Shown: positions 6,802 through 62,272, counted from the stretch's first letter. The stretch is 64,000 nucleotides of DNA from Coprobacillus sp. CAG:698 (GCA_000431235.1 HF988734.1:92-64091); one strand, 5' to 3'. Notes: generated by a model from the letters alone, not told the origin. Translations and numbers: made by a program.

Positions 6802-6838
6802 AAGTCCTATGACGGTTGTCATAAGACTTCTTTTTTTA
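6802..6838. terminator. Bidirectional terminator between the convergent transporter gene and clpP.
   Basis: AAGTCcTATGAC-ggtt-GTCATAaGACTT flanked by an A-run and a T-run. Confidence 0.6.
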
Positions 6839-7414
6839 TTTTTTCTCAACAATTTTATCAATTAAACCATAATCTAAAGCTTCACTAGCAGACATAAAAT
6901 AATCACGTTCAGTATCAGCACTAACTTGAGCTAATGTCTTTCCTGTGTTAGAAGCAAGAATCGAATTAAGTCTTTCCTTAACACGTAAAATATTCTTAGC
7001 ATGAATTTCAATATCCGTAGCTTGACCTTGATAACCACCAAGAACTTGATGAATCATTATTTCACTATTTGGAAGACTATAACGTTTGCCTTTAGCTCCT
7101 GAAGATAATAAGAATGCTCCCATACTTGCTGCGTAACCTAAGCAAATAGTGCATACATCAGGTTTAATATAATTCATAGTATCATATATTGCCATTCCCG
7201 CAGTTACAGAACCTCCAGGAGAACATATATACAAAGAAATATCTTTATCGGGATCTTCAGCTGCCAAAAATAATAATTGTGCAATAACAGAATTTGCAAG
7301 ATTATCATCGATTTCCCCACTTAAAAGAACAATACGATCTTTTAATAAACGTGAGTAAATATCATATGACCTTTCCCCATTAGAAGTTTTTTCAATTACA
7401 TAAGGTATATACAT
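6836..7414 (-). CDS. clpP: ATP-dependent Clp protease proteolytic subunit.
   Basis: Full-length match to the ClpP fold (…[16 protein letters not shown]…[11 protein letters not shown]…), with catalytic Ser-His context. RBS AAAGGAGG. Confidence 0.95.
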
Positions 7415-23241: not shown

Positions 23242-24474
23242 ATGAAAAAATTAGGAAAGATTATGAGCCTATACTTACTGCTTGCCTTGTTTGTTGGTTT
23301 ATTTGCTTGTTCTGATAGATTATTTACTGAAAGAAAAATAATGTCTAGTGAACTTACAAGTAATGTCCAAACAAGAGAAATTAAGGTTAAGGATATAGAT
23401 ATAACTTTCGAAAATATTTACAGCGAATTTGCTGTGAAGATGATGAAAGAGTTATATGAAGAAGAAAATACTTGTATATCTCCACTTTCAATAGCTGCTG
23501 CTTTTGGTATGGTTACAAATGGCGCAAATGGAAAAACAAAAGATGAATTGGAGTCATTACTAGGAACTGATGTCCAAACATTTAATTCTTATTTTGCATC
23601 ATTAATGAGTAAAAATGGAAAAAGTAAGAAATTATATCTAGCAAATTCGATATGGAGTCGAAAAGATGAAGTAACAGTCAAAGATGAATTTTTAGATATT
23701 GTTAAGAATAATTATCATGCTCAAGTTTATTCATCAGAATTTGATGATAATACAGTAAAAGATATCAATAATTGGGTTTATAACAATACACGAGGTGGTA
23801 TTGGCAATATAATCGAAAAAATTGAACCTTATGAAATACTTTTCTTAATTAATGCTCTTGATTTTGAGTCAGAATGGAAAGAAAAATTTGAGAAGAATGA
23901 AATCGTAAATAAAACATTCCATGGATTACAAAGTGAAAAAGAAGTTTCTATGATGTTCGCTACAGAACATACTTATATTGAGTCTAAAAATGCCAAAGGA
24001 TTTATAAAATCATATGCAGATGAGGATTATAAATTTGCTGCTCTACTTCCAAACGAAGATATATCAATCAAAGAATATATGAATTCTCTTACTGGCGAAG
24101 AACTCAATAAAATATTAGCAAATGCACAAAAAGAGTCTATTAGAATAGGCCTACCTAAATTTGATTTTGAAAACACATTTGATATGAAACCAACTCTAAA
24201 GAAACTAGGAGTAAATGAAGCATTTGAAGAATATGGTGATTTCACTAATCTTGGAACTAGTAAAAATGGAATTATGTATATAGGAAGCGTTATTCATAAA
24301 ACACACATTTCAGTAGATGAGATGAAAACAAAAGCAAGTGCGGTAACAAGTATTGGGATGACAAATGATTCAGCAGTAATGTTAAAACCAATTATTCTTG
24401 ATAAACCATTTATCTATATGATACTTGATAAAAATAATTTACCTATATTTATTGGTGCAATTGTAAACTTTTAA
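23242..24474 (+). CDS. Serpin-family (serine protease inhibitor) lipoprotein.
   Basis: Lipobox LFAC. Serpin-like core, with a hinge/reactive-centre-loop region (…KASAVTSIGMT…) and a C-terminal PIFIGAIVNF-type motif. RBS AAGGAGG. Confidence 0.65.
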   Translation: MKKLGKIMSLYLLLALFVGLFACSDRLFTERKIMSSELTSNVQTREIKVKDIDITFENIYSEFAVKMMKELYEEENTCISPLSIAAAFGMVTNGANGKTKDELESLLGTDVQTFNSYFASLMSKNGKSKKLYLANSIWSRKDEVTVKDEFLDIVKNNYHAQVYSSEFDDNTVKDINNWVYNNTRGGIGNIIEKIEPYEILFLINALDFESEWKEKFEKNEIVNKTFHGLQSEKEVSMMFATEHTYIESKNAKGFIKSYADEDYKFAALLPNEDISIKEYMNSLTGEELNKILANAQKESIRIGLPKFDFENTFDMKPTLKKLGVNEAFEEYGDFTNLGTSKNGIMYIGSVIHKTHISVDEMKTKASAVTSIGMTNDSAVMLKPIILDKPFIYMILDKNNLPIFIGAIVNF

Positions 24475-32009: not shown

Positions 32010-35000
32010 ATGAAAAATACAAATAGAATAGCAAAAATATTCTTTTTTTCAATAATTATATTACTGATTATTACGTGCTTTGGACTTGTAAACATTAATG
32101 TTTATGCATCAATATCACCTGATGACATCTATACAGGGTATTCGTCAACACTTGATCGTAATACATTGAAAGAAAAAACTACTACGACAAATTTTACAAC
32201 TGTTGATTATGAGAACAATAATTTCGTATATAGCAGAACAACTGAAATGGTCGATGATTCAGAACCACTATTAACAGTTCTTGTACCTGGATATGGAAGT
32301 GAAGCGAGTGTTTGGAGTAATAGTTTTGAATATTTTCCTAAAACAGATTTTGTAAAATCTGAAGGTGAAGATGAGGATAAAAAACAAGAAAGAAAAAGAA
32401 AAATGGTATTTGCTTACGACTCTGATTCAATAATTGAGAGATTAAGACATGTATCAAATGCAAATGTTTATTGGGCAAAAATGAATTCTCATGATTCATT
32501 TGTTTTATATCAATTGCCTGATTTATCTGAACAAGAAAAATATGTTTCAGATATATTTCAAGTGAATAGGACAATTACGTATGAAGAATTAAATTTAATT
32601 TCATATAAAGAAAATGCAACAATAGTAAGACAAATTAGTGATATATCAAAACATTCAATAATTGTATTTGAATCTTTTAAACCAGAAAATAGTAATGATT
32701 TCGTTTATGAAGAACTAGATTACGTGATAGATAAGATTGTATATGATATTAAAGTTTTAAATGAAAATAAATTACCAAAAGTCAACTTAATTTCTCATAG
32801 TAGAGGTGGATTAACAGTAATGCAGTATACTTTAGATCACCCAGATTTAGTTGAAAATGTGTACACAATAGGTTCACCTTTTTTAGGATCAAAACTAGGC
32901 TCATCAGATTTGATTATAAGTTTTATATATGAAGAAAAAGATGAAGGTATAAATGATATTTTAGATTATAATTTGTATATGGCATATCAAAATAGATGGA
33001 ATAGTAACTACGAAATATTATATAATAATATAAACTTTAATGCAATTGGTGGTTATTCTTCAATAGATTTTATTGCTGAAATGCTTTTATATAATATTTT
33101 TAATGTACCTCAATGGGTGGGAATTATTACTTCTTTAATTAATAAAATAAAAATATTAGAAAATAGCATTATAGGATTAACAGCATTAATTGGTAAACTT
33201 GGTGATAAGTATGAATGGGGAGCTGCAATTAATAAATTTACAGATTCACTCAAAATAGAACATTTTAAAGATTTTTTTACAGGAAGACTTGTTATCGAAG
33301 ATGATTTATTTATAGATCTTGAGTCACAATTAGGTACAGGTTATTTAGGCTTTAAGGAATTCAAAAGGTGTTTTGAAATTGACAACTGTAATTTAAATAA
33401 AGTGGCACAGCCAAACACAGCAATAGTGCATAATTTAGAGTCTAGAGATGAAATAATAATTAATCATATAATGCAAGATATTACAATGATTGGAAAAAAT
33501 CCATCGGATTATGAAATATATTTGATTGATGAATCTTCAGTTGGAATAAAATCATATATAGGCAAATCATTAATTAATATGTTAGTAATACCTTCTGTTA
33601 TTGATAATAAAACTGTTGTTGAAATTGGTGAGTATGCTTTTTCAAATTTAAAATCTTCTCAATTAGTAGATACAATTTATATACCTACATCTATTGAAAC
33701 TATAAAAAAAGGTAGTTTCTATGATTGTGTGAACTTAGAAAATGTTTATTTTTCAAATACATCTAATGTTAGGAATATTGGAGAATCTGCATTTAGAAAT
33801 TGTATTAATTTAGCGAGTATTAGTATACCTAATTCAGTATTGTCAATAGGTGATAGATGTTATTATCTATGTAAAGATTTAACAACACTTGATATTGGAA
33901 GCGGCTTAACAAATATAGGAGATGCAGCTTTTGCATATTGTAATTTAAGCGTAGTAACAATAAATGAAAATACGAATTTTTCGTTTAGTAATAATACATT
34001 ATATGATGTAATTAACAACGCAATAATTAGTTGCAATTCTTCAAATGAAAATTTTGTTGTTCCAGATAATATAACTAAGATAAAAGATTATGCTTTTTAT
34101 GGAAATGAAAACATTTCATCTATTTCTTTAAATAATGTAACTGAAATAGGTGCTTATGCATTTGGAAAATGTACAAGTTTAGAGAATTTTGTTAATGCAG
34201 GCAATGTTAACAGGGCAAAGAGAAATTCATTTTATAACACTCCATGGTTAGATAATAGTAATATTAGACTAATTGGTAAAACACTTGTAAAATATGATGA
34301 TGAAAATAACAATGTTTATGTAGTTCCATCAAATATTAGCACAATAGGAGACGATGCATTCAATTCCTTTGAATTAGAAAAAATAATATTAAATGAAAGT
34401 ATAGAGTATATTGGTGAAAATGGCCTAGCAGCTTGTGTAAATTTAAATGATATATATTTTTTAAGAACTATACCATGCGTAATATTTAATAATAGTATTA
34501 TAAATAAGTCTACTATGAATATATATGTTCCTCAAATAGGACTTGATAGATATCGCAGTGATACAAAATTTTCAAAATATTATAATAGTATTAAAACAAA
34601 AAGTGTTATGTTGAAATTATATGATGGTCAAGTTATAATTGATAGTAAAACAGTTTTATTTGGCTCAATAATAAATAATATAAGACAACAAAATAAAACA
34701 GGTTATAGTTTTTCTGGCTGGAAAAATGAAAATACTAATGAAATATACAATACAGGATCATATTTAAATATATATGATGACCAAATAAATCTATATGCAC
34801 ATTATATACCTAATGAGTATATAATATATTTAAATAACGAAGGTATTTTTTTAAATGATGAATTAATACGTTATGGTGCAGTAGCAAGTTTGCCAGTACC
34901 ATATAAAAATGGATATGATTTCATTGGTTGGTTTGATGGGCCATCAGATAGTTATAATAGAATAACAACTAATGATGGTTTATTAATTAATAATTGGAGT

Positions 35001-36257
35001 TATGACCATGATAGCGTGTTGTATGCAGTTTATACACCTAAGGAATATAATATTACTTATGTTTTAAATAATGGTATATCACCAAATAATCCTTTAAAAT
35101 ATAGCTATGGCGATACTATTATTCTAAATGAGCCTAAAAGATACGGATATCATTTTAGTGGATGGAAAATAAATGATGTAATGACAAATGTAATTACACC
35201 GACAATGCAAGGTGATTTAGTGATTGAAGCTATTTGGATTGGTAGGACTATTAATTTGAATGGTATGGTTTCAGTTCATAATGTATCAAGTACAGCAGAA
35301 ATTATTAATCTATCTAATCTAACAACACCGAGCACAGGAATAGTCTTTAATATTCCAAGTAATGTTCTTCAGGTTACATTTATTGGAAGCACATCGAAAA
35401 GATATAGAGCTAGAATTAATATTGCTAATAGATCAACAAGTCTTTTGATTAATTTAGAAAACGTAGATTTTATTTCTCCTAATGGATATCATTGTATTGA
35501 TGCTGGTAAAGGAAATTATTCATTGCATCTTAACTGTGTTGGTACGAATTCATTAATAGGAGGAAGTGGTTTGTATGATGGTAATGATAATGGATTATCA
35601 GGATATTATGGTATATTAGCATATAGATTATTTATTTATGGTGATTCACTAAGTGTCACGGGTGGTAATGGAAGTAATGGATTAAATGGAACAAATGGTG
35701 AAAGAGGAATGGATGGAGTAAATGGTCCTAGCGGTGGCGCTTTTGATCCAATTCAAGGTGATTCTGGAACAGATGGGACAGATGGATCAAATGGAACAAA
35801 TGGCGGTCATGGTGGATTTGCTATTTACACAATTTCTAGATATTATAATAGTTGTAATCAATTAACTTTGACTGGTGGAAGAGGAGGCAATGGTGGAGCC
35901 GGTGGTAATGGTGGAGCTGGTGGTAATGGTGCTTCTGATGATTCATCTAGTATTTTTACTGGTGTTGGTGATCCTGGAAATGGAGGAAATGGAGGCAATG
36001 GTGGAAACGGCGGAAATGCTGGGTCTGGACAATATGCTAATAATAATGATTTGAATGGAAATAGATCACAAAATGGAACTCCCGGAAGAGGAGGAACAGG
36101 TGGAGCTGGTGGCACAGGGGGATTGGCAGGCTCTTATGGAAATGATGGAAACGATGGATCATTTGGATTATCAGGATTAAATGGAACAATCATTTCACAA
36201 TATTATATAAAATTAAATTGTCTTTCTGATACTTCTAAGAATAGTTTTATCACCTAG
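32010..36257 (+). CDS. 1415-aa mosaic surface protein. It has a signal/TM anchor, a lipase/esterase-like alpha/beta-hydrolase domain, BspA-type leucine-rich repeats, three Listeria-Bacteroides repeats and a C-terminal collagen-like Gly-X-Y / glycine-rich region.
   Basis: SHSRGG nucleophile-elbow-like motif. LRR units (…IGEYAFSNLKSS…IGESAFRNCINLASISIPNSV…IGDAAFAYCNLS…). Flg_new repeats YSFSGWKNEN, YDFIGWFDG and YHFSGWKIND. GXY runs such as GSNGLNGTNGERGMDGVNGPSGG and GGRGGNGGAGGNGGAGGNG. Confidence 0.7.
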   Translation: MKNTNRIAKIFFFSIIILLIITCFGLVNINVYASISPDDIYTGYSSTLDRNTLKEKTTTTNFTTVDYENNNFVYSRTTEMVDDSEPLLTVLVPGYGSEASVWSNSFEYFPKTDFVKSEGEDEDKKQERKRKMVFAYDSDSIIERLRHVSNANVYWAKMNSHDSFVLYQLPDLSEQEKYVSDIFQVNRTITYEELNLISYKENATIVRQISDISKHSIIVFESFKPENSNDFVYEELDYVIDKIVYDIKVLNENKLPKVNLISHSRGGLTVMQYTLDHPDLVENVYTIGSPFLGSKLGSSDLIISFIYEEKDEGINDILDYNLYMAYQNRWNSNYEILYNNINFNAIGGYSSIDFIAEMLLYNIFNVPQWVGIITSLINKIKILENSIIGLTALIGKLGDKYEWGAAINKFTDSLKIEHFKDFFTGRLVIEDDLFIDLESQLGTGYLGFKEFKRCFEIDNCNLNKVAQPNTAIVHNLESRDEIIINHIMQDITMIGKNPSDYEIYLIDESSVGIKSYIGKSLINMLVIPSVIDNKTVVEIGEYAFSNLKSSQLVDTIYIPTSIETIKKGSFYDCVNLENVYFSNTSNVRNIGESAFRNCINLASISIPNSVLSIGDRCYYLCKDLTTLDIGSGLTNIGDAAFAYCNLSVVTINENTNFSFSNNTLYDVINNAIISCNSSNENFVVPDNITKIKDYAFYGNENISSISLNNVTEIGAYAFGKCTSLENFVNAGNVNRAKRNSFYNTPWLDNSNIRLIGKTLVKYDDENNNVYVVPSNISTIGDDAFNSFELEKIILNESIEYIGENGLAACVNLNDIYFLRTIPCVIFNNSIINKSTMNIYVPQIGLDRYRSDTKFSKYYNSIKTKSVMLKLYDGQVIIDSKTVLFGSIINNIRQQNKTGYSFSGWKNENTNEIYNTGSYLNIYDDQINLYAHYIPNEYIIYLNNEGIFLNDELIRYGAVASLPVPYKNGYDFIGWFDGPSDSYNRITTNDGLLINNWSYDHDSVLYAVYTPKEYNITYVLNNGISPNNPLKYSYGDTIILNEPKRYGYHFSGWKINDVMTNVITPTMQGDLVIEAIWIGRTINLNGMVSVHNVSSTAEIINLSNLTTPSTGIVFNIPSNVLQVTFIGSTSKRYRARINIANRSTSLLINLENVDFISPNGYHCIDAGKGNYSLHLNCVGTNSLIGGSGLYDGNDNGLSGYYGILAYRLFIYGDSLSVTGGNGSNGLNGTNGERGMDGVNGPSGGAFDPIQGDSGTDGTDGSNGTNGGHGGFAIYTISRYYNSCNQLTLTGGRGGNGGAGGNGGAGGNGASDDSSSIFTGVGDPGNGGNGGNGGNGGNAGSGQYANNNDLNGNRSQNGTPGRGGTGGAGGTGGLAGSYGNDGNDGSFGLSGLNGTIISQYYIKLNCLSDTSKNSFIT
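35650..36180 (+). repeat. Low-complexity GGN/GGT codon repeat region encoding collagen-like GXY triplets.
   Basis: Runs of ggtggaNNN codons. The reverse-strand Pro-rich ORF 35858-36115 is its mirror image. Confidence 0.8.
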
Positions 36258-36297: not shown

Positions 36298-37851
36298 ATG
36301 TATTTTATAGAAACAAATTCTGTTTATGGAACTAATATGTATTTGCTTGATTATAATAAAAATCTAGTTAGCAATGTTAACGGATTTAGGATTAATAATG
36401 ATTTAGATATGTTTATTTTTCCTACACTTTCATCTGGAATTTATTATCTAAAAATCACAAATAATGATAATATAATATCAAATGTTGATGTGTCGTTTGA
36501 ATATCGAAATAATACATCAGAATGTTTAAATGTTAATCAACAAATTGAAATAGTAGATTGTATTCATAATAGTCAGAAAAAATATCTTTTATCGTTGGCA
36601 ACATCTGGGTTATATAAAATTGAACTAAACGCAATATCAGATTTTGATATTACATTTGGAACTGGAACAATAGAAATTTATTATAAAGATAGTCTTATGA
36701 AAAAAGTAAATATAAGCAACTTTTCTAATTACACACAAAGCATTCAAAATGCAAATAGTATTGTTTTCTTTGTAGAACAAAATAAAATATATTATGTTGT
36801 TATTAACTTTTCGCAGATTTATGTTGACCAATTGTATTTAAATTTAGAACCAGTAGAACAAATTGCATTTGGAGCTTACGATGACTATAATAGTGAAGAA
36901 GCTTTGATTTATGGGGATGCAGTTAAAAGATGGGTTGTTAAAGGAACTTCTCAATATAAAATTTCACTTGATTATTATGGAAATAGCATTTCTAACCATG
37001 AGTTTTATATTTTAAAACAAAATGGTAATAATATTATGTATATGGATTCTACAAGTTTCAGTGGATATGTTCATATGAAACATAGAGAAATGATAGTAAA
37101 TTTAAGTAATGATGATGTAATTTATTTAGGATATTTTGATGGTGTTTCAGATGGAACAATTAAAATAACGATTGAAAGAAATATAGCTCAATCCTTTGAT
37201 ATATTAGTTGATCCAAATAGTGGTTATACTGTTGGTTCAGAAGTAAATTTAGGCTTTGGTCCATATGGCGAAACTATAATTCATCAAGGCTTAACTAGAA
37301 TATGTTATTTAGGCCCAGACGCACCAGACTCACGATCTAGATTAAATTATGAGTGGATTTCTGCAGATGAAGGAATTGCTAAAGTTAGTGCCTATGGTAC
37401 TATTACTGCTATATCTCCAAGAAGAACAAAAATAATGCCGATATATAAATTAGATAAAACAATTGTTGGAACAATTTATATTGATGTAATTGGTTATCCT
37501 GGTGAGGGAATAATTTATTTAAATTATGGAATGGACGTAAGAGTAGATGGAACAATATCTGGAACAGAAGTAACAAGCGGAAGTGGCAGCATAATAGAAG
37601 TTTCATCTAGTCCATATGTGACTATTCATTTAGGTAATACAAGATTGATATGTTTAGGTAGTGATAGTCCTAGTTTGAGCATTCAAGATTTTGAATGGAG
37701 TTCGGGTGATACTAGCATAGCAACTGTATCAAGTTTTGGAACAATAAATGCACTTGAAGTTGGTAGCGTAGTTATTTATGGAAAGTATAAATATAATCAA
37801 AACTATAGAGTAAGGATTGATATAGAAGTATTACCATTAACTGATTATTAA
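36298..37851 (+). CDS. 517-aa secreted or surface protein with two C-terminal Big_2 Ig-like domains. Likely co-transcribed with the upstream mosaic gene.
   Basis: Big_2 motifs ADEGIAKVSAYGTITAISP and GDTSIATVSSFGTINALEVGSVVIYG. Start context CAAGGAATG. Confidence 0.55.
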   Translation: MYFIETNSVYGTNMYLLDYNKNLVSNVNGFRINNDLDMFIFPTLSSGIYYLKITNNDNIISNVDVSFEYRNNTSECLNVNQQIEIVDCIHNSQKKYLLSLATSGLYKIELNAISDFDITFGTGTIEIYYKDSLMKKVNISNFSNYTQSIQNANSIVFFVEQNKIYYVVINFSQIYVDQLYLNLEPVEQIAFGAYDDYNSEEALIYGDAVKRWVVKGTSQYKISLDYYGNSISNHEFYILKQNGNNIMYMDSTSFSGYVHMKHREMIVNLSNDDVIYLGYFDGVSDGTIKITIERNIAQSFDILVDPNSGYTVGSEVNLGFGPYGETIIHQGLTRICYLGPDAPDSRSRLNYEWISADEGIAKVSAYGTITAISPRRTKIMPIYKLDKTIVGTIYIDVIGYPGEGIIYLNYGMDVRVDGTISGTEVTSGSGSIIEVSSSPYVTIHLGNTRLICLGSDSPSLSIQDFEWSSGDTSIATVSSFGTINALEVGSVVIYGKYKYNQNYRVRIDIEVLPLTDY

Positions 37852-40666: not shown

Positions 40667-40747
40667 GTGTCCTTTTCAACTTGTAGATTTTAAACATTAA
40701 AAAGTACGTATGGAGTATAATGTATACGTAAAAAGGAGGAAGTGTAT

Positions 40748-42325
40748 ATGAGTATTTTAAAATCAAAAATCATTCGTAACTTCGTAAACACAATTTATTT
40801 ATTTGGACTTAATGCTTCAAGTGAGGTTCGTCAAATTATTATCAATTATCTTGAAAAAGTATTTAATTATAAATTAGATGATGAAACTAAAGATATTCTT
40901 CTTAATGATAGATTATCTCTTGAAGAAATAAATCTCTTTTTCCGAAAATACAAATATATGCTTTTGGATGGAGATGAAGTTGGAGAATTAGAAGAAGTAA
41001 AAAAAGTATATGAAGTAGCACGTGAAAGTATTAACTTATTTACAAGCTTAGAAATAAAAGTTGAAGATGATAGTATTTCAGTTCTTAAATCATTTGAAAC
41101 TTTACAAGAAGCTTTTAGTAAAAACTTAATTCTTGCTAATAGTATATATGGAGTAATTTATTATAATGGAATATTTAAGGATATAAATGTTGATAAAGCT
41201 AATATGTACTTTATAAAGAATGCTTTATGGAATAATGAATTTGCTATGTTAGCCTTAGCATTAAATTATAAAGAACAAAAAGATTATGAAAAGAGTTTAT
41301 ATTGGGAACGCATGGCGATGAAAATGAACTTTTTAGAAGAATGTGAAGAATATGATTTGCCAAAAAATGTTATCAAAAAAATAGAAAAAGAAGTTGAAAA
41401 GGATTATGAAATACATAAACTTTTAAAAGATGATCGTGCAAGTAGCCAATACAACTTACAAACTTATAATCCAAGTTTATCAAAAATACTTTATGATAAA
41501 TCATTTAATATTACTGAAAAGAAAGCTTTACTTTTCACACAACAAAAAATGGATTTTTCACATGTAAGTGCTTTAGTATGCGAAAAGAAAAAATATGAAT
41601 TATCAAAAATAAAATATAGTTTCCGTGCTGATGAGCAAGAAAGATTGATTAAAGCTTTAAAAGTTATCACAAGTAAAGAAAATAACTATCCATTAATTAT
41701 AAATTGTGAAAGCAAAGAAATTATTAATTTATATTCTAACTTTATTAATGAATATTTTAAAAATGATATCGTAAAAGATTTAGATGCCACTAGATGTGAT
41801 TATAATGCTCTTTTAAGAACATATGCACAAAATAACTATTTATATCAAATAGTAACTCAAAATGGATCTAATAATATAGTTATGAAATATCATAACTTAC
41901 ATGAAGTAAAAGATTCTAATCTTTCAATGTTCTTAAGTTTATTGAATCCTAATGAGAAGTATTTCATTCAAGATTTGATGGCATCTGTTGATAAGAGTCA
42001 TTTAATTAATATTATCTTTGTACAAAATTTACATTCATTAGATAGCCGCATTTTACAATCTTCAAATATCATAACTTTAAAGAAAGAAACAGAAGAAGAA
42101 AAAGAAGAAATTGTTCGCACAAAATTCTTAATTGAATTAGAAAACAAAGGAATCGAATATTCAAAAGAATATGATAAGTATATAGATAAAATAGCATCTA
42201 CAATATCATTTGAAAGAATATTTGAAGTAATCAATGAAGTTGTATCACGTGTTAGTTTCGAAACTGAAGATGTTCTTAATGAAATAATTGTACAAGCTAA
42301 AAACTCTCGTACAATTGGGTTTTAG
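40748..42325 (+). CDS. 526-aa all-helical hypothetical protein with Sel1/TPR-like repeat(s). It is the upstream partner of the T4CP-like ATPase.
   Basis: RBS AAGGAGG then ATG at 40748. Sel1-like segment MYFIKNALWNNEFAMLALALNYKEQKDYEKSLYWERMA. The stop is 10 nt before the next gene's start. Confidence 0.55.
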   Translation: MSILKSKIIRNFVNTIYLFGLNASSEVRQIIINYLEKVFNYKLDDETKDILLNDRLSLEEINLFFRKYKYMLLDGDEVGELEEVKKVYEVARESINLFTSLEIKVEDDSISVLKSFETLQEAFSKNLILANSIYGVIYYNGIFKDINVDKANMYFIKNALWNNEFAMLALALNYKEQKDYEKSLYWERMAMKMNFLEECEEYDLPKNVIKKIEKEVEKDYEIHKLLKDDRASSQYNLQTYNPSLSKILYDKSFNITEKKALLFTQQKMDFSHVSALVCEKKKYELSKIKYSFRADEQERLIKALKVITSKENNYPLIINCESKEIINLYSNFINEYFKNDIVKDLDATRCDYNALLRTYAQNNYLYQIVTQNGSNNIVMKYHNLHEVKDSNLSMFLSLLNPNEKYFIQDLMASVDKSHLINIIFVQNLHSLDSRILQSSNIITLKKETEEEKEEIVRTKFLIELENKGIEYSKEYDKYIDKIASTISFERIFEVINEVVSRVSFETEDVLNEIIVQAKNSRTIGF

Positions 42326-42335
42326 GAGGTAAATT

Positions 42336-44561
42336 ATGAATCGTAAAATTGATTTAATTAGTAAAAATCGTGAAAACACACCATTTTATGATTTTAAGGA
42401 TATAAAAAAATTATGTAAAGATCCTAATAATGAATATTTTGGTAAGTGTGTTCCTTATAATGAACTTGAAAACTATGAAACAAATTGTATTCCTATTGCT
42501 CACTTTTATGATGATAACAACAAATTACAAGTTGTATTTTCAAGAGATCCTTCTCATGCTTTAGGTATTGGATGTACAGGAGCAGGAAAAACAACTTCTT
42601 TAGTAATTCCTAAAGTTAATATTTTATCATCTCTTAAAAATAAACCATCATTTATTATCATTGATGTAAAAGGAGAACTTCATGATAAATTAAGTGGTCA
42701 TTTGAAAGAAAAAGGATATAATATAAAAGTTATTGATTTAGACGAACCAGAATATAGTGCATCATGGAATCCTTTATTAAGCATTTATGATAAATATATA
42801 GAAGCACATGAAATTGTCAAGAAAGTTGTTGAACATACAGATAGTATCTCAGATTATCCAAATCTTTCAAAGTTTGCATATAAAGGGAAACCAAGTGTAT
42901 GGTATGAATTTGATGATGTTGCTTATAGTGATTTAACAAATCTTAATAAAGCAATAAGTCATAAAAAAGAAAAGTTAATAGCCGATGTATCTGAAGAAAT
43001 ACGCGACTTATCATATATGTTTATCGTAACCCAAAACTTAGATGATCCTCACTGGGATGATACAGCTCGTGACTTGTTTGCAGGTGTAATCTTTGCAATG
43101 CTTGAACGTACAATACTTGAAGATGGTAAATGCTTAACAAGGAATCAGTTTAACTTACGAAACATTGTTAATGCCATCTTAGCATCAAGAGAAGATGATT
43201 TAAAGAGATTTATTAACAATAGCGATAGACGTGGGGAAGCTTATCGATTTGCAACAAGAATCGTTAATATGGAAGCAGAGAAAACTAAATCATGTTATTT
43301 TGGCGTTTTATCGACACAACTTTCACCATTTAAGAGTTATGCTATTCAAAAGGTTACAATTAAGAATACAATAGATTTTGATAGAATTACTGATGAACCA
43401 GAAGCAGTTTTTATCAAAATGGATGACTTGAAAGAATCTAATTACAAATTAGCTCAATTAATAATATTAAGATTATATCAACAAATCAAAAATATAGCTA
43501 AGAAAATGCCTGGAAGAACTCTTGCTAAACCTGTGCATTTTATCTTAGATGAATTTGGCAATTTCCCAAAATTTAATGAGTTTGCCAAAATGATTAGTGT
43601 GAGCCGTAGTTATAATATATGGTATACAATGATTGTTCAATCGTATAGCCAACTTAAAATGATTTATGGTGAAGGTGTATCAAATGTTATTATCGAAAAT
43701 AGTAACATGAGATTATTCTTTGGTACAAATGATTTCTATACTATGAAGAGTTTTTCAGAGGCTTGTGGGAAGAAAGCTAAAATATCTGAAGTAGCTTATT
43801 TGAATGTCAATTCATCTAATTTGTCAGCATGCCCAATTGAAGAATTTCCAACTGTACCGGTGTCTGATTTATCAAAGATTGATACATCTGAAGTTTATAT
43901 AACATGCTTTAGAATGCCAGTGTTACATTCAAGGATGGAAAGATATTATTTAGTTAAAGAGTTTGAACCTCTTCCACCAGTTGAATATAGAGTAATTGAC
44001 AATATTGAAATCGGAACTAAGGAATATACATTTGATATTGGCGAAGATGATAACATATTCTCAGGAAAGAAACAATTCCCATCAAAATATGTTCCAAATA
44101 AGAAAAAAGAAGCTGATATAACAAAGAAAATGTTAGCTTATTTTGAAGAATTATTAATCATAAAGAAACCTGGTAAAAATGCTATACGTTCATTTATAGA
44201 AGTATCACGTACTATTTTGCCTATGTATATACTTGATTATTTAAGTAATGTTAATGAAAGAAATATTTATATGGATTATAGGGAGTTATCAAAAAACAAT
44301 TTGATTACGAAAACAACGTTCTATAAAACATTAAATAAAGAAATAGTCACTGCGTTCTTGGAAAACGAAATAGAAAGCTTAGATGTTAATAAAGAAAGCT
44401 TTATGGATGATTTACGAAAAAGATTTGATGAAGTAATATTTAATTCGATGAACTATGCAGTAGCAATTTTCCCTCAAGAATTCTCTGAAAATCTTAAGTT
44501 TATACGAGATGATTTCGATACAAACACTTTAGATTACTTAAAAGAATTTATATTAAAATAA
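42336..44561 (+). CDS. Soluble VirD4/TraG/TraD-family (type IV coupling protein-like) P-loop ATPase with an extra C-terminal domain of about 240 aa. It has no N-terminal TM helices.
   Basis: Walker A GCTGAGKTTS. Walker B HFILDEFGNFPKF. TraG-D_C-like RSYNIWYTMIVQSYSQLKMIYGE. RBS GGAGGT. Confidence 0.7.
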   Translation: MNRKIDLISKNRENTPFYDFKDIKKLCKDPNNEYFGKCVPYNELENYETNCIPIAHFYDDNNKLQVVFSRDPSHALGIGCTGAGKTTSLVIPKVNILSSLKNKPSFIIIDVKGELHDKLSGHLKEKGYNIKVIDLDEPEYSASWNPLLSIYDKYIEAHEIVKKVVEHTDSISDYPNLSKFAYKGKPSVWYEFDDVAYSDLTNLNKAISHKKEKLIADVSEEIRDLSYMFIVTQNLDDPHWDDTARDLFAGVIFAMLERTILEDGKCLTRNQFNLRNIVNAILASREDDLKRFINNSDRRGEAYRFATRIVNMEAEKTKSCYFGVLSTQLSPFKSYAIQKVTIKNTIDFDRITDEPEAVFIKMDDLKESNYKLAQLIILRLYQQIKNIAKKMPGRTLAKPVHFILDEFGNFPKFNEFAKMISVSRSYNIWYTMIVQSYSQLKMIYGEGVSNVIIENSNMRLFFGTNDFYTMKSFSEACGKKAKISEVAYLNVNSSNLSACPIEEFPTVPVSDLSKIDTSEVYITCFRMPVLHSRMERYYLVKEFEPLPPVEYRVIDNIEIGTKEYTFDIGEDDNIFSGKKQFPSKYVPNKKKEADITKKMLAYFEELLIIKKPGKNAIRSFIEVSRTILPMYILDYLSNVNERNIYMDYRELSKNNLITKTTFYKTLNKEIVTAFLENEIESLDVNKESFMDDLRKRFDEVIFNSMNYAVAIFPQEFSENLKFIRDDFDTNTLDYLKEFILK

Positions 44562-46612: not shown

Positions 46613-46936
46613 ATGTTTATTAATACAGTGCAAGAAAATAAGAATTTTGAAACTGGCAAAAAAAAGTTTGACAGTCGCTTCGTAAAAAAACAAGTAGAAA
46701 CTAAAGAAATTAGAACAATTCTAATTGACAAAAGTAAAATAGAAAATGTTGTTGTACTATATAAACACAATATGCCTGTAGTATGTGAGATTTCTTTAGA
46801 TGATATCGTTTATGAGGGAATACCAACAGATATTTTTATAACTCCTGACAAACAAGAATTAGATGTTCTAGTAAATGAAGAACATATAAAAGTTGATTTA
46901 TCAAAAATTAGAGATTTCAAAATATTAGAGATTTAG
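46613..46936 (+). CDS. Hypothetical 107-aa protein. Start uncertain: the listed TTG at 46592 lies in the terminator T-tract.
   Basis: AAAGGA, 5 nt, then ATG at 46613. Its stop overlaps the stop of the convergent gene (TTAG). Confidence 0.4.
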   Translation: MFINTVQENKNFETGKKKFDSRFVKKQVETKEIRTILIDKSKIENVVVLYKHNMPVVCEISLDDIVYEGIPTDIFITPDKQELDVLVNEEHIKVDLSKIRDFKILEI

Positions 46937-47355
46937 TTGTTCCCACAAGTTCCTGTACAAGCTTCACAGCAAATAGGTGCGTGACATTGTAAGCCACAAA
47001 TGCAATCAATCTTTAAAATTGTTGTATAGTTAGTGCAAGTATAAGCATTATCTGTAACTGTAATTAAACGTAAAACTACGCAATCATTTTTGATGTTTTC
47101 AATTCTAAAAACATTAGTAGTTGCAGTTGAACCAACTTCAGGCAAAGTAACTGTATAAGTGTTTCCGCAGCACAAGTAACAAGTAATAGGTTTAGTGTTA
47201 TAGAAAGCAGAAATTAAAGAACCTTCACATCCCTCACAAGCACTTTGAACAGTTGCTGCTTTTTGCATTTGATCGATTTTTGCAAGTGTGTCATAAATAA
47301 AACCACGATTTGTAGTTGGAGTAGTAGTTTGAGGAGTTTGATTAATACATGCCAT
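46933..47355 (-). CDS. Cys-rich 140-aa protein, with about 20 Cys in CxxC/CC clusters. Possibly a spore coat or crust protein.
   Basis: Strong RBS GAGGTGA, 7 nt, then ATG on the minus strand. Motifs ACEGCEGS, CYLCCGNTY and CICGLQCHAPICCEACTGTCGNN. The upstream CATATTATA matches the sigma-K -10 consensus CATAnnnTA. Confidence 0.6.
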   Translation of the reverse strand: MACINQTPQTTTPTTNRGFIYDTLAKIDQMQKAATVQSACEGCEGSLISAFYNTKPITCYLCCGNTYTVTLPEVGSTATTNVFRIENIKNDCVVLRLITVTDNAYTCTNYTTILKIDCICGLQCHAPICCEACTGTCGNN

Positions 47356-54839: not shown

Positions 54840-55643
54840 GTGATTAAATTGTTTGTTGATTGTGTTTTTGAAGGTGGAGGGATAAAAGGATTAACATATG
54901 TTGGTGTTTTAGAGTATTTTGAAGAAAATGGATTTCAGGTTCATAAAGCAGTAGGAACAAGTGTCGGTGCGATTTTCGCAGCTTTAGCAGTTGCAAAATT
55001 TTCTGTAAAAGAAATCAAAGTGATTATTGAAAGTCTTGACATAAAAACAATAATTTCTCGAAATAAATTTGTTACGTCTATAAAAGGCTTAGGAATGAAT
55101 AACATATATGAACTTGAAAAAAAACTCGATGAAATATTAAAAGCCAAAAACATATCTACATTTAGAGATATAAAGTTCGGAAATGATTATCGTTTGAAAG
55201 TAGTAACAACAGATTACAAGTTGAGAAAAGAAGTAGTCATTCCCGATGATTTGCCTAAGTATCATATTGATAAAGATTCATTTAAAGTAAGCAAAGCTTT
55301 AGCAATGAGCGCTTGCTTGCCATTAGTTTATTCGATTTATGAATATCATAATTATAAATTTATTGATGGAGGAGCAACAAATAAATTTCCAATTGAATTA
55401 CTAAGTAATTCTAAAAATCCTATTGTTGGATTAAAGATAGGAAAAGACAATCAGATTATAAAATCATTCCAAAACAAAGTTTTTAAAAGCTCCGATGAAA
55501 AAAAAGAAATAAACAATTCTTTTATAATCAAAATTGACACATTAGGATTAAGAGCAAGCCAATTCTCTAAAGGTCTAGATAATAAAGAAGATTTATACAA
55601 AGCAGGGTATTTAAGTATCAAAAATTATTTTCGTAATTTATAA
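54840..55643 (+). CDS. Patatin-like phospholipase. The start may instead be the TTG at 54849.
   Basis: GGGIKG oxyanion motif, GTSVG nucleophile elbow and a catalytic Asp in DGG. Confidence 0.8.
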   Translation: MIKLFVDCVFEGGGIKGLTYVGVLEYFEENGFQVHKAVGTSVGAIFAALAVAKFSVKEIKVIIESLDIKTIISRNKFVTSIKGLGMNNIYELEKKLDEILKAKNISTFRDIKFGNDYRLKVVTTDYKLRKEVVIPDDLPKYHIDKDSFKVSKALAMSACLPLVYSIYEYHNYKFIDGGATNKFPIELLSNSKNPIVGLKIGKDNQIIKSFQNKVFKSSDEKKEINNSFIIKIDTLGLRASQFSKGLDNKEDLYKAGYLSIKNYFRNL

Positions 55644-58882: not shown

Positions 58883-59392
58883 ATGAATAGAGTTATCTTA
58901 GTTGGCAGACTAGTAAAAGACCCAGAATTAAGAAAAACAAACAATGATATTGCTGTGGTTCAGTTTACACTTGCTGTAAATAGAACATACTCTCGTAATG
59001 GTGAAAGAACAGCAGATTTCATCAATTGTGTTGCTTGGAGAACTCAAGCTGAGAATCTTGCAAAATATATGCGTAAGGCAAGTCAAATTGGTGTAGAAGG
59101 CCAATTACAAGTTCGTACATATGAAGATAGTACTGGTGCTAAAAGATATGCTACTGAAGTAATATGCGACAATATTCATTTCCTAGAAGCAAAGAATACA
59201 CGTGATGGTGGAGGCTTTTCAGATGTAAATACTTATGATATTCCCGACTATCAAGGTGGAGGCTTTGACGATGTATTTGGTGCAGTAAAAACTACACCAA
59301 GTGTGAATACAAAATCACCTAATCAGATAGAAGATCCATTTGCAAACTTAAAAACAAAAACGGGTGTATCTGATGATGATTTACCATTTTAG
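58883..59392 (+). CDS. ssb: Single-stranded DNA-binding protein.
   Basis: OB fold with a C-terminal acidic tail DDDLPF. Confidence 0.9.
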   Translation: MNRVILVGRLVKDPELRKTNNDIAVVQFTLAVNRTYSRNGERTADFINCVAWRTQAENLAKYMRKASQIGVEGQLQVRTYEDSTGAKRYATEVICDNIHFLEAKNTRDGGGFSDVNTYDIPDYQGGGFDDVFGAVKTTPSVNTKSPNQIEDPFANLKTKTGVSDDDLPF

Positions 59393-59830: not shown

Positions 59831-61822
59831 GTGAAATATATGAAAAAAATTAAAATACTAAATACTATAGAATACTTGTTTTTAATGTTTTCTAGTATAG
59901 CGGTAATTATTCTAATCGTATTTAACCAAAATAGATATGTTATTTTTGGCTTATTCATAATAATAGGTTTACTATTAGGCATAATAATATCCTCAACAAT
60001 AAACCTAAAAAGGCAAAAACAAATAGATTGGCTAGAGGAAAGGATAAAACTAACAAATAGTATAGCTTATCGTGTAAAAATAGCTGGTGAAAAAGCTTTT
60101 ACAGAAATACCCTTAGGAATCATTGTTTTTGATAATTCCTACAAAATTGAATGGGCAAACAATTATGCTAAAGAAATATTTTTATCACCTTTAGTTGATC
60201 GAAAACTTTCATTAGTTGATACTGATTTAGAAGTAAAAGCAAGAGCGCTAAAGAACTTTACAATTACTATATATGGTCATGAGTATGAAGTAGATGTTTT
60301 ACATGATGATAATATAATGTTTCTAACAAATCGTACTGAATTGTTTGAATTAGAAAAAAAATACTTTGATAGAACTCAAGCTGCCGCAATCATAAGCTTA
60401 GATAACTTTGAAGAAGCCTTATCAACAGTTGATGCCCAAGCAAGAGCGATGACAGTGAGTGATATAATAGGTATATTAAGTGATTGGTGTCAAAAGTTTG
60501 GTCTCTTTATAAGAGGTTATTCTGAAAAGCAATATTTAGTTCTAATGAGCAGAGAGCAATTAGAACATGTAATGCAAGAACAATTTGATGTAGTTGATGC
60601 TGTAAATGAGTATTGTAATAATCAAGGCTTGAAAATATCTATTTCTATAGGTGTAGCCTGTTTCGATGTACAAATAACTGATTTAATGGCCAAAACAAGT
60701 GATATGCTTGATTTAGCCTTAAATAGAGGTGGAAACCAAGCAACAGTTTATATCGATGGAAAGATTAGATATTTCGGAGGCAAAGAAATAGGTTCAGAAA
60801 TAAGACTTCCAATATATGTAAGAATGAAAACTGAAGATTTATGTGAACTTATTGAAAAATCTCCAGATGTAATGATAATGGCACATAGTAATTCAGATAC
60901 AGATGCTTTTGGAGCTTGCGTTGGTTTACTAAAAATATGTATGGCTTTAGGCAAAGAAGCTAAAATCGTAATCGATGAAGACTTATGTGATGCAACAGTC
61001 AAAAAGATATTAAACGAAATTAGAGCTGAACATATCGGAATGAATGATTACTTCATAACATCAAGTAAAGCAATATCACAAATCACAAGTGAAACACTAT
61101 TGATTTTGGTTGACGTCCAATATGAAGGTAATTTAATCAGTCCTAAGCTTTACCGAAAAGCTAAAAAAATTGCGATTATCGATCATCATCGTAGTAGCAG
61201 TAAAGCTATTTCTAACTATCAATATATGTACAATAAAACAACATCATCTTCATCAGTTGAATTAATTGTTGAGATGTTTGATTATATCGATGGTGAGATA
61301 AATATAACAAGTATAGAAGCATCACTTATGCTTCTAGGTATATTAGTAGATACAAATAATCTAATTTATCGAACTTCGGCACAAACATTTGCTGTAATGA
61401 GTAAACTGCAGTTGTACGGAGCTGAAATGTCAAAAGCACAAAATTATTTACGTGAGGATGCAGATTCATATAATAAACGAATTGCTATTTTATCATCATT
61501 AAATATTATAGATGAAAAGTATGGAATTTGTTTATGTGATGTTGAAAATATATATACTCGTCCTTTTATTGCTAAAGTTGCTGATAACATCATAGCATTA
61601 AATACTGTAAAAGCTGGTTTTTGTATAGGCAGAATATCGGAAGACACAATTGGTGTGAGTGCTCGTAGTTTCGACTTTAACGTCCAACTAATAATGGAAC
61701 AACTTGGTGGTGGTGGTCACTTTAATAATGCTGCAACCCAAATCAAAGGTGCAACAATAGAAGAAATAGAAAGAAAATTAATTGAAATTCTCAGAAAAGA
61801 TGAAAGCGTTGGTGAAGAAACA
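59831..61822 (+). CDS. gdpP: Cyclic-di-AMP phosphodiesterase GdpP (2 TM, PAS-like, degenerate GGDEF, DHH and DHHA1 domains). It has no stop codon and runs in frame into rplI.
   Basis: DHH motif IMAHSNSDTDAFGA, IDHH, and DHHA1 GGGGHFNNAAT. The ORF continues in frame into MKIILVKDV... Confidence 0.8.
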
Positions 61823-62272
61823 ATGAAAATTATACTAGTAAAAGATGTAAAAGGAAAAGGTAAAGCCGGAGATATTATTGATATCCCATCAGGACATGCA
61901 AACTATTTGATTAAAAATAAACTTGCGATAGTTGCAAGTACTGATAATTTAAATGAATACAAAAAGAAAAGTGAACAAGATAAAATTGACGCTCAAAATT
62001 TGCTTGATGAAATGAGAAAATTAAAGGAATTCTTAGAGTCTCATCCAGTAAGCATTGGTGTAAAAGTTGGTAAAGAAGGAAAATTATTTGGTTCAGTAAG
62101 TAATAAACAAATTGTTGATGAAATTAAAACACAATATAATGTTTCTTTAGATAAAAGAAAAATTCTTTTTGAAAAAGATATTGATGCTTTAGGAACATAT
62201 ACTATTCCAATTCAATTACATAAAGAAGTAATAGCTAATATTACACTATATGTTGTTGAGAAAAAGAGTTGA
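61823..62272 (+). CDS. rplI: 50S ribosomal protein L9.
   Basis: 149-aa L9 signature MKIILVKDVKGKGKAGDI. Internal RBS GGTGAAG, 7 nt before the ATG. Confidence 0.85.
   Translation: MKIILVKDVKGKGKAGDIIDIPSGHANYLIKNKLAIVASTDNLNEYKKKSEQDKIDAQNLLDEMRKLKEFLESHPVSIGVKVGKEGKLFGSVSNKQIVDEIKTQYNVSLDKRKILFEKDIDALGTYTIPIQLHKEVIANITLYVVEKKS

Follow-up and report, generated by a model that had tools for sequence, protein, structure and literature searches.

A soluble coupling-protein-family ATPase and a Lon-derived pseudo-ATPase form a conserved gene module of Bacillota with a possible link to ClpP

The 64,000-nucleotide stretch of the Coprobacillus sp. CAG:698 genome analyzed here (GCA_000431235.1, HF988734.1:92-64091; hereafter, the window) carries, among housekeeping genes, two adjacent genes whose products are currently annotated as "unknown" and "putative uncharacterized". 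The second gene encodes a soluble ATPase from the family of type IV coupling proteins (T4CPs), and the first encodes a partner protein which, judging from profile comparisons, is a pseudo-ATPase derived from Lon. The host belongs to the class Erysipelotrichia, and the pair is the Erysipelotrichia version of a module that is widespread in Bacillota and, in its other versions, often includes a gene for the peptidase ClpP. From genomic inference only, we tentatively favor a cytosolic ClpP-linked protease or remodeller that would be driven by an exapted T4CP motor. The initial annotation of this DNA, made without database searches, had raised the possibility of an undescribed system, outside any conjugative element, built around a soluble T4CP-like ATPase; synteny, about 25 related loci and the literature support such a system and indicate that it is conserved, and no description of a ClpP-associated T4CP or of the partner family was found in the full-text literature searched.

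Both open reading frames (ORFs) of the initial annotation were recovered by ORF calling, and their translation signals can be read from the sequence:

40734..40739, + strand: AGGAGG, ribosome-binding site for the partner, 8 nt 5' of the ATG at 40748
40748..42325, + strand: partner gene, 525 aa
42324..42329, + strand: AGGAGG, ribosome-binding site for the ATPase, which overlaps the TAG stop of the partner gene, 7 nt 5' of the ATPase ATG
42336..44561, + strand: gene of the soluble T4CP-family (VirD4/TraG/TrwB-like) ATPase, 741 aa, identified by ORF calling and Pfam

The ATG at 40748 has an AGGAGG 8 nt upstream of it and is, for this reason, taken as the start of the partner in preference to the GTG at 40742. 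The ATPase gene begins 10 nt past the partner stop, as was first noted, and the overlap of its AGGAGG with that stop suggests translational coupling, so that, given the overlapping translation signals, the pair can be regarded as an operon whose genes are coupled in translation; the efp gene downstream possesses a promoter-like site of its own, in which the -10 element is extended. The genes for AsnA, aldose epimerase, EF-P and CoaX flank the pair, which confirms the aldose epimerase and efp flanks named initially. The window has a GC content of about 27% and a uniform leading-strand skew, and its Pfam-recognized content (tmk, holB, clpP, asnA, efp, coaX, tkt, sspI, gdpP, rplI, dnaB) is that of a housekeeping region. 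The reported lack of relaxase, VirB4, integrase and replication families near the pair was corroborated by a Pfam scan, which yielded no match to these among the 40 scanned ORFs of the window; the scan took in 40 of the window's 54 ORFs that reach 100 aa or more, the other 14 or so being mostly antisense or nested, and the plausible genes at 54840-55643 and 58883-59392 lie outside it.

The full catalytic core of a T4CP is retained in the ATPase, as the initial annotation had it. Walker A, Walker B and the signature SRSYNIW...QSYSQL...YG are all present and invariant among its relatives:

42570..42593, + strand: Walker A GCTGAGKT (aa 79-86), GKT kept in 19 of 19 aligned soluble relatives
43542..43559, + strand: Walker B ILDEFG (aa 403-408), LDEFGN invariant

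Three Pfam families match the protein within aa 68-484 (T4SS-DNA_transf, 3e-44; TraG-D_C, 2.6e-23; TrwB_AAD_bind, 1e-17). When the AlphaFold2 model, built from 37 sequences and reaching a predicted local distance difference test score (pLDDT) of 88.9, was compared with the PDB using Foldseek, the top matches were Cag-beta (8dol, E 6e-16), TrwB (1e9s, E 5e-15, target TM-score 0.7) and DotL, followed further down by the DNA motors HerA and VirB4. No 19-aa hydrophobic stretch compatible with a transmembrane segment was detected on the Kyte-Doolittle scale in the ATPase or in its 15 close relatives; the maximum 19-aa hydropathy of the ATPase is 1.04, and Walker A already lies at aa 79. The soluble state postulated initially therefore stands, whereas the accompanying premise that a membrane anchor is universal among T4CPs does not, since T4CPs without a transmembrane domain are a recognized class that includes TraJ of pIP501, which is recruited by its partner TraI (PMC7431656).

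The existence of such partner-dependent T4CPs is an argument for regarding the ATPase as a genuine coupling protein that serves a type IV secretion system (T4SS) or conjugative element elsewhere in the genome, with the upstream protein acting as a membrane or relaxosome recruiter, as TraI does for TraJ. It could also be argued that, among the next-closest T4CPs (30-36% identity), most of which have 2-4 N-terminal transmembrane segments, the three whose loci were examined occur in T4SS-pilin clusters (L007, L008 and L012), although a VirB4-like gene is found only in L012. This explanation is nonetheless very improbable. The partner, too, lacks a transmembrane or hydrophobic segment in a hydropathy scan; no T4SS or relaxase gene is present among the scanned ORFs of the window or the related loci; the ATPase falls under the cutoff of the closest conjugative family in NCBIfam (NF045973, VirD4-like conjugal transfer protein, CD1115 family; 232.2 bits in two stretches against a cutoff of 250); and the pair occupies a fixed, vertically inherited position in the core genome. 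A plasmid or integrative conjugative element backbone around the pair in related genomes, or clear transmembrane helices, had been named beforehand as observations that would speak against a non-conjugative system, and neither was encountered, the former in the approximately 25 related loci examined. The clusters in L007, L008 and L012 are themselves chromosomal and combine the T4CP with T4SS_pilin (PF18895) and giant proteins of 1600-3600 aa without a Pfam match, the cluster in L008 being located among housekeeping genes such as S20, holA and comEC. The proteins encoded downstream of the L008 T4CP and upstream of the L012 T4CP were considered as possible relatives of the partner, and both are unrelated to it.

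The C-terminal domain of about 240 aa that had been left unassigned is better described, according to the AlphaFold2 model, as the end of the nucleotide-binding domain, which reaches approximately aa 535, then a linker, then a helical bundle of 146 aa (aa 595-740):

44016..44558, + strand: clade-specific C-terminal extension (aa 561-741), linker and 146-aa helical bundle, pLDDT >90 for aa 595-740

This extension is restricted to the clade of the family that includes the window (hereafter, the window clade) and is not found in the relatives of 550-590 aa. It is poorly conserved and evolves fast, with a ratio of nonsynonymous to synonymous substitution rates (dN/dS) of 0.38, compared with 0.033 for the ATPase core. 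The possibility that the extension is a fused copy of the winged-helix protein encoded downstream of the ATPase in the other, sister clade (see below) was ruled out, with an hhalign probability of 0.1%. Among the soluble T4CPs linked to ClpP genes (L011, L013, L014, L066, L074, L092, L113), most carry a basic stretch and then, as their terminus, an aromatic F-x-F (PFVF, LFDF, PFGF, SFDF, PFDF), and others have an acidic tail; the F-x-F ending might serve as another docking peptide, for instance towards the Sel1 domain of the partner.

The partner, for which no match was found among Pfam, NCBIfam or PADLOC families, consists of three recognizable parts:

41093..41335, + strand: Sel1-like repeats (aa ~116-196), inside a confidently modelled helical N-domain (aa 1-260)
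41645..42307, + strand: degenerate Lon-type AAA+ module (aa ~300-520), without Walker A, Walker B or arginine finger
42314..42322, + strand: C-terminal Ile-Gly-Phe, proposed ClpP-docking motif, the final three codons, invariant in the window clade

The Sel1 repeats are recognizable both in sequence and in fold, as the initial annotation had proposed. Its further description of the partner as an all-helical, scaffold-like protein has to be abandoned because of the C-terminal half, where the structure model displays a beta-alpha-beta pattern at aa ~300-520, albeit with low confidence, and where homology to the AAA+ module of Lon was detected. The profile of the whole partner family matches this module in LONP1 (4e-7), Escherichia coli and Yersinia Lon (2e-5) and Bacillus subtilis Lon (1.3e-4). 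The match spans profile positions 387-520, covers the region from sensor-1 to the lid, and aligns the partner motif DLSxVLPICFCD with DLSKVLFxxTAN of Lon (sensor-1 block DLS-x-VL...(T/C)xx(N/D)) and the EK of the lid with EK. Walker A is present in none of the 91 family members, the Walker B and arginine-finger positions are also replaced, no Lon protease domain is among the Pfam matches, and the partner stops just past the AAA+ lid. The two clades of partners are homologous end to end, as indicated by an hhalign comparison of the window-clade profile with 16 typical members of the other clade (probability 99.4%, E 3.9e-21, 480 columns). In a search of 1.84 billion representative proteins, the window-clade profile yielded 115 matches, about 90 of them collinear and 510-556 aa long.

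Besides W161, the most conserved feature of the partner family is its tail, [I/Y/F]-G-F(-G-G), denoted hGF hereafter, which is located 0-8 residues from the C-terminus and in which G is found in 97% and F in 96% of the 91 members; the window-clade partners finish exactly in IGF. In the window partner, the tail contains the docking tripeptide (I/L/V)-G-(F/L) as a sequence motif. The same motif occurs in E. coli ClpX (GSGIGFGATV, NC_000913.3), and the IGF(G) loops of ClpX dock into the hydrophobic H sites of ClpP (PMC9035409), suggesting that the IGF tail of the partner may likewise dock on ClpP. The candidate peptidase in the window lineage would be the housekeeping ClpP encoded 33 kb from the pair:

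6836..7414, - strand: canonical ClpP, Pfam CLP_protease 1e-84

Compared with solved ClpPs, this protein reaches 288-298 bits, and the match covers its entire length with the N-terminal axial loop included.

Within the window clade, the six closest loci (L001-L006) all show aldose epimerase, partner, T4CP and efp in this order, and their ATPases are 60-88% identical to that of the window over the full alignment (71-87% over the best segment). The deepest branch of the clade, L010 (39% ATPase identity), retains aldose epimerase, partner and T4CP and has a ClpP gene in place of efp. The aldose epimerase was considered as a module member and rejected, being conserved only within the window clade, and is treated as synteny. 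The pair is present in all sampled relatives of the window at a fixed core-genome position. In comparison with L001, the partner has a dN/dS of 0.11 at a dS of 0.63 and the ATPase a dN/dS of 0.094 at a dS of 0.87, with dN/dS falling to 0.033 in the ATPase core; the neighboring genes show dN/dS of 0.02-0.11 and dS of 0.17-0.97. By these measures, the pair is vertically inherited and under purifying selection. The isolation of the pair from all other transfer genes would fit a non-functional, decaying remnant of an integrated conjugative element. Such decay is effectively refuted, as judged from these sequence comparisons, by the catalytic motifs of the ATPase, which are invariant across 39-88% identity, and by the low dN/dS; the fixed position, the intact ORFs and the conservation of the partnership across the deepest split of the family argue in the same direction. 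The suggestion of a domesticated conjugation remnant thus survives with regard to the exapted ATPase and fails with regard to decay.

A link to proteolysis comes from the sister clade. Loci were collected by a GTDB scan with generic Walker patterns and a metagenome scan with a dedicated DNA pattern, and were analyzed by ORF calling and hidden Markov models. The GTDB scan returned at least 30 loci, 4 of which, among the matches listed, are of the soluble type; the metagenome pattern (NIW-x5-QSY[AS]QL) was unspecific and gave 85 loci, mostly with T4CPs bearing transmembrane segments, 14 being informative. Among the matches listed, which also delimit the two counts that follow, the partner is encoded directly upstream of every soluble T4CP for which upstream sequence is available (20 loci). 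Of the 14 distinct loci outside the window clade that are informative, 8 have a gene for ClpP immediately upstream of the partner (L011, L013, L014, L066, L074, L077, L090 and L099; L049 and L113 were counted with L014 as the same or a near-identical version, the L113 ATPase being 96% identical), and no adjacent ClpP is found in the other 6. The eight loci span sub-clades that share just 42-45% ATPase identity. In L010, the arrangement is different, with the ClpP gene starting 1 nt past the T4CP gene.

The ClpPs linked to the module are of two types. That of L010 is canonical and 70% identical to the ClpP of the window, whereas those of the sister clade are 40-51% identical to it and score approximately 150-160 bits against solved ClpPs (about 290 for the window protein). 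The catalytic residues S97, H122 and D171 are retained in these paralogs, the canonical residues of the N-terminal axial loop and Y60/Y62 are lost, and an insertion of 7 aa is common to most of them; that the paralogs form a distinct group with such changes implies a dedicated partner. The tail of the pseudo-ATPase co-varies with the type of ClpP, IGF-COOH being paired with canonical ClpP in the window clade and hGFGG with the remodelled paralog in the other clade. Directly 5' of the ClpP paralog, a DUF1292 gene (~104 aa) is found in three loci (L014:7456-7770, L074:5561-5878, L113:425-742).

Clustering by BLASTP identified only the T4CP, the partner and ClpP as common to both clades, and comparisons more sensitive than BLASTP added a fourth family. 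In nine sister-clade loci, the soluble T4CP gene is followed directly by one whose product has a winged helix, (V/I)S(I/V)PxIQ...Y..A, as its N-terminal part and is otherwise variable:

L011:4847-5455, winged-helix gene
L013:9176-9739, winged-helix gene
L014:11685-12398, winged-helix gene
L050:4380-4832, winged-helix gene
L053:6931-7845, winged-helix gene
L066:7084-7392, winged-helix gene
L074:1-1040, winged-helix gene
L098:1-341, winged-helix gene
L113:4709-5365, winged-helix gene

Sub-threshold matches to Pfam FtsK_gamma were obtained in 3 of these loci and, setting aside repeat-driven matches to designed pentatricopeptides, the best PDB matches of the winged-helix profile are FtsK gamma domains (E 1e-3 to 1e-2). 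The gene is probably a fourth component of the module; the window clade lacks it. The sister-clade flanks otherwise contain transporters, DUF1292, sigma or helix-turn-helix factors, RadC and tRNA methyltransferase, and no T4SS, relaxase, phage or PADLOC-recognized gene is present among the scanned flank genes. In L015, an 848-aa protein that combines RuvB_N and RuvB_C with a TnsA-like endonuclease N-terminal domain is encoded two genes downstream of the pair (L015:7657-10203).

The winged-helix gene bears on an alternative in which the ATPase is a cytosolic DNA motor of the FtsK/SpoIIIE/TraB kind that works with an adaptor in chromosome or DNA processing, for example, in sporulation or repair, the adjacency of ClpP in other lineages being regulatory or incidental and the window lineage making no use of proteolysis. 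In addition to this FtsK-gamma-like neighbor, the T4CP fold belongs to the FtsK-HerA superfamily and the lower Foldseek matches are the DNA motors HerA and VirB4; the host forms spores, SspI being encoded in the window, and the window lineage has no ClpP gene next to the pair. We consider this alternative unlikely, although it carries some weight. Neither window protein has a DNA-binding domain recognizable by Pfam, the C-terminal extension of the ATPase is unrelated to the winged-helix proteins, and a DNA motor would leave unexplained the Lon-like pseudo-AAA+ partner, the conserved hGF tail and the juxtaposition with ClpP in two different arrangements. Of the DNA-handling role suggested initially, what remains is an indirect tie to DNA through the sister-clade winged-helix gene; proteolysis is the strongest contextual signal, because a ClpP paralog is encoded beside the pair in many lineages, the partner is a Lon-type pseudo-AAA+ protein and its tail resembles the IGF(G) of ClpX.

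A role in defense, also suggested initially, fared worse. Under this explanation, the pair would serve in anti-phage defense or another conflict: its FtsK/HerA-type ATPase would detect invading DNA and switch on a protease effector, in analogy to Sir2-HerA and DUF4297-HerA. HerA-effector defense complexes are indeed among the structural neighbors of the ATPase, which also gives a weak PADLOC match to mad8 (E 6e-10 for the window, 4e-10 for L013), and a TIR_2 protein is encoded 2 kb downstream in L011 and RadC upstream in L050. However, PADLOC-DB v2 contains no model that matches the partner, the ClpP paralogs or the downstream genes, and no other mads genes were found; the window pair is present in all sampled relatives at its fixed core-genome position, with dS equal to that of its neighbors; elsewhere, the neighbors are transporters, sigma factors and tRNA methyltransferase; and a search of 2.9 million viral contigs turned up no copy. 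Defense is thus a distinctly unlikely function of the pair.

The preferred explanation, a ClpP-linked protease or remodeller with an exapted T4CP motor, can be formulated for the fuller module, in which four genes follow one another in the order ClpP paralog, Sel1/Lon-like pseudo-ATPase, soluble T4CP ATPase and FtsK-gamma-like winged-helix protein. The T4CP-derived protein, the catalytic motifs of which are intact, would be a cytosolic ATP motor, hexameric by analogy with TrwB and Cag-beta. The partner, combining a dead Lon-type AAA+ module with a protein-binding Sel1 domain, would bridge the motor and ClpP by inserting its C-terminal IGF tail into hydrophobic pockets on ClpP, in the way that ClpX does with its IGF(G) loops. 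Together, motor and partner might feed or regulate the ClpP-dependent degradation or remodelling of specific substrates which, given the FtsK-superfamily motor and the winged-helix partner of the sister clade, could speculatively be DNA-bound proteins. In the window lineage, the pair has neither a dedicated ClpP gene nor a winged-helix gene beside it; here, the housekeeping ClpP would take on this role, and a C-terminal helical bundle has been gained by the ATPase. In its strongest form, which we consider doubtful, the proposal holds that a T4CP hexamer with a pseudo-AAA+/Sel1 adaptor makes up a new class of ClpP-activating machine, the first with a RecA-like motor of the FtsK/HerA superfamily in place of an AAA+ unfoldase, perhaps guided to DNA by the winged helix and extracting and degrading DNA-bound proteins.

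Several observations weigh against a link to ClpP. The window and its closest relatives L001-L006 have no adjacent ClpP, so that the link is transferred from homologs, and it is missing from the 6 sister-clade loci mentioned above. The AAA+-like region of the partner is modelled with pLDDT below 50, which it did not exceed because the alignment could not be deepened beyond 9 close relatives, a homologue search with the partner family alignment returning the same 9 only, and the window-clade profile, when used alone, does not reach Lon. A motif as short as hGF can have other origins, and since the linked ClpP paralogs have not kept the tyrosines of the H site, docking on these may differ from the ClpX mode. 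The FtsK-gamma-like downstream gene points to DNA rather than proteolysis. T4CPs, moreover, are better known as receptors of DNA or other substrates, and to our knowledge no ATPase of the FtsK/HerA superfamily drives ClpP.

If the proposal is correct, ClpP would be driven or gated by a motor that is not of the AAA+ type, which would widen the rule that self-compartmentalized proteases pair only with AAA+ unfoldases. The module would also be a clear example of a coupling protein that passed, by exaptation, from conjugation to a housekeeping role in the cytosol, and would bear on whether the unfolding or translocation of protein substrates is carried out by T4CPs themselves. It would further suggest a testable function for about 90 representative clusters of 535-aa proteins that have no Pfam or NCBIfam model, and for the distinct group of ClpP paralogs that is common in gut and rumen Clostridia and Erysipelotrichia.

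Other features of the window are recorded here for completeness. An 813-aa ORF (59831-62272, + strand) carries PAS_GdpP, GGDEF_GdpP, DHH and DHHA1 domains followed by both domains of ribosomal protein L9, and appears to be either a gdpP-rplI fusion or the product of a lost stop codon. A 1914-aa ORF (8061-13805, + strand) has no Pfam match at E up to 0.001, and a bacterial serpin (23242-24474, + strand; Pfam Serpin 1e-77) is encoded amid the housekeeping region. A 1415-aa surface-type protein (32010-36257, + strand) combines an alpha/beta hydrolase, BspA-type leucine-rich repeats, Listeria-Bacteroides repeats and a Gly/Asn-rich C-terminus; together with a Big_2 protein (36298-37851), it forms a block in which GC content rises locally to 0.35 and which is missing from the syntenic L001 and L004. 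A Cys-rich 140-aa protein without a Pfam match (46933-47355, - strand) is found at the same position in L001, L004 and L006.

Compared with known systems, the window ATPase shares with the T4CPs VirD4, TrwB and Cag-beta the fold of the nucleotide-binding and all-alpha domains, the Pfam families and intact Walker A and B motifs; unlike it, these proteins have an N-terminal transmembrane domain. VirD4, TraG and TrwB are, in addition, encoded with a T4SS, a relaxase or both on mobile elements, none of which was found near the window pair (40 ORFs scanned) or in the related loci, whereas the window type always occurs with the Lon-like pseudo-ATPase, often with ClpP, and bears a clade-specific helical bundle. 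TraJ of pIP501 resembles the window ATPase in being a soluble T4CP with a separately encoded partner. That partner, TraI, is however a membrane protein of a conjugative plasmid, and the window partner is a cytosolic, Lon/Sel1-like protein in a chromosomal housekeeping context. The HerA-effector complexes (Sir2-HerA, DUF4297-HerA) and mad8 of MADS resemble the pair in placing a hexameric ATPase of the FtsK/HerA superfamily beside an effector-type enzyme, with weak structural and PADLOC similarity; they differ in that the window ATPase is a T4CP by family, that PADLOC recognizes neither the partner nor ClpP, and that the locus is part of the core genome and vertically inherited. Type VII secretion employs EccC, a membrane-bound FtsK-like protein with three ATPase domains, and EccA, in which tetratricopeptide repeats are joined to an active AAA+ ATPase; the likeness of EccA and EccC to the pair that could be demonstrated is at the level of generic fold. 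Both this analogy and that with SpoVK were considered at that level.

On the side of the proteases, ClpX, ClpA and ClpC share with the partner family a flexible motif of the ClpP-docking type ((I/L/V)-G-(F/L), compared with [I/Y/F]GFGG or IGF-COOH) and, in many lineages, linkage to clpP. In these unfoldases, the motif is carried in an internal loop of an active AAA+ protein, which is itself the motor, whereas the partner has it at the C-terminus and, having no Walker A, cannot be a motor; the only active ATPase of the module is the RecA-like protein of the FtsK/HerA superfamily. LonA contains an AAA+ module homologous to the partner from sensor-1 to the lid, from which the partner differs in lacking Walker A, Walker B, the arginine finger and the C-terminal Ser-Lys protease domain, and in an N-domain composed of Sel1 repeats. 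The partner is therefore neither a Clp ATPase, because it has no active site, nor a Lon protease, because it has no protease domain; the components of the module are familiar, and their combination matches no known system.

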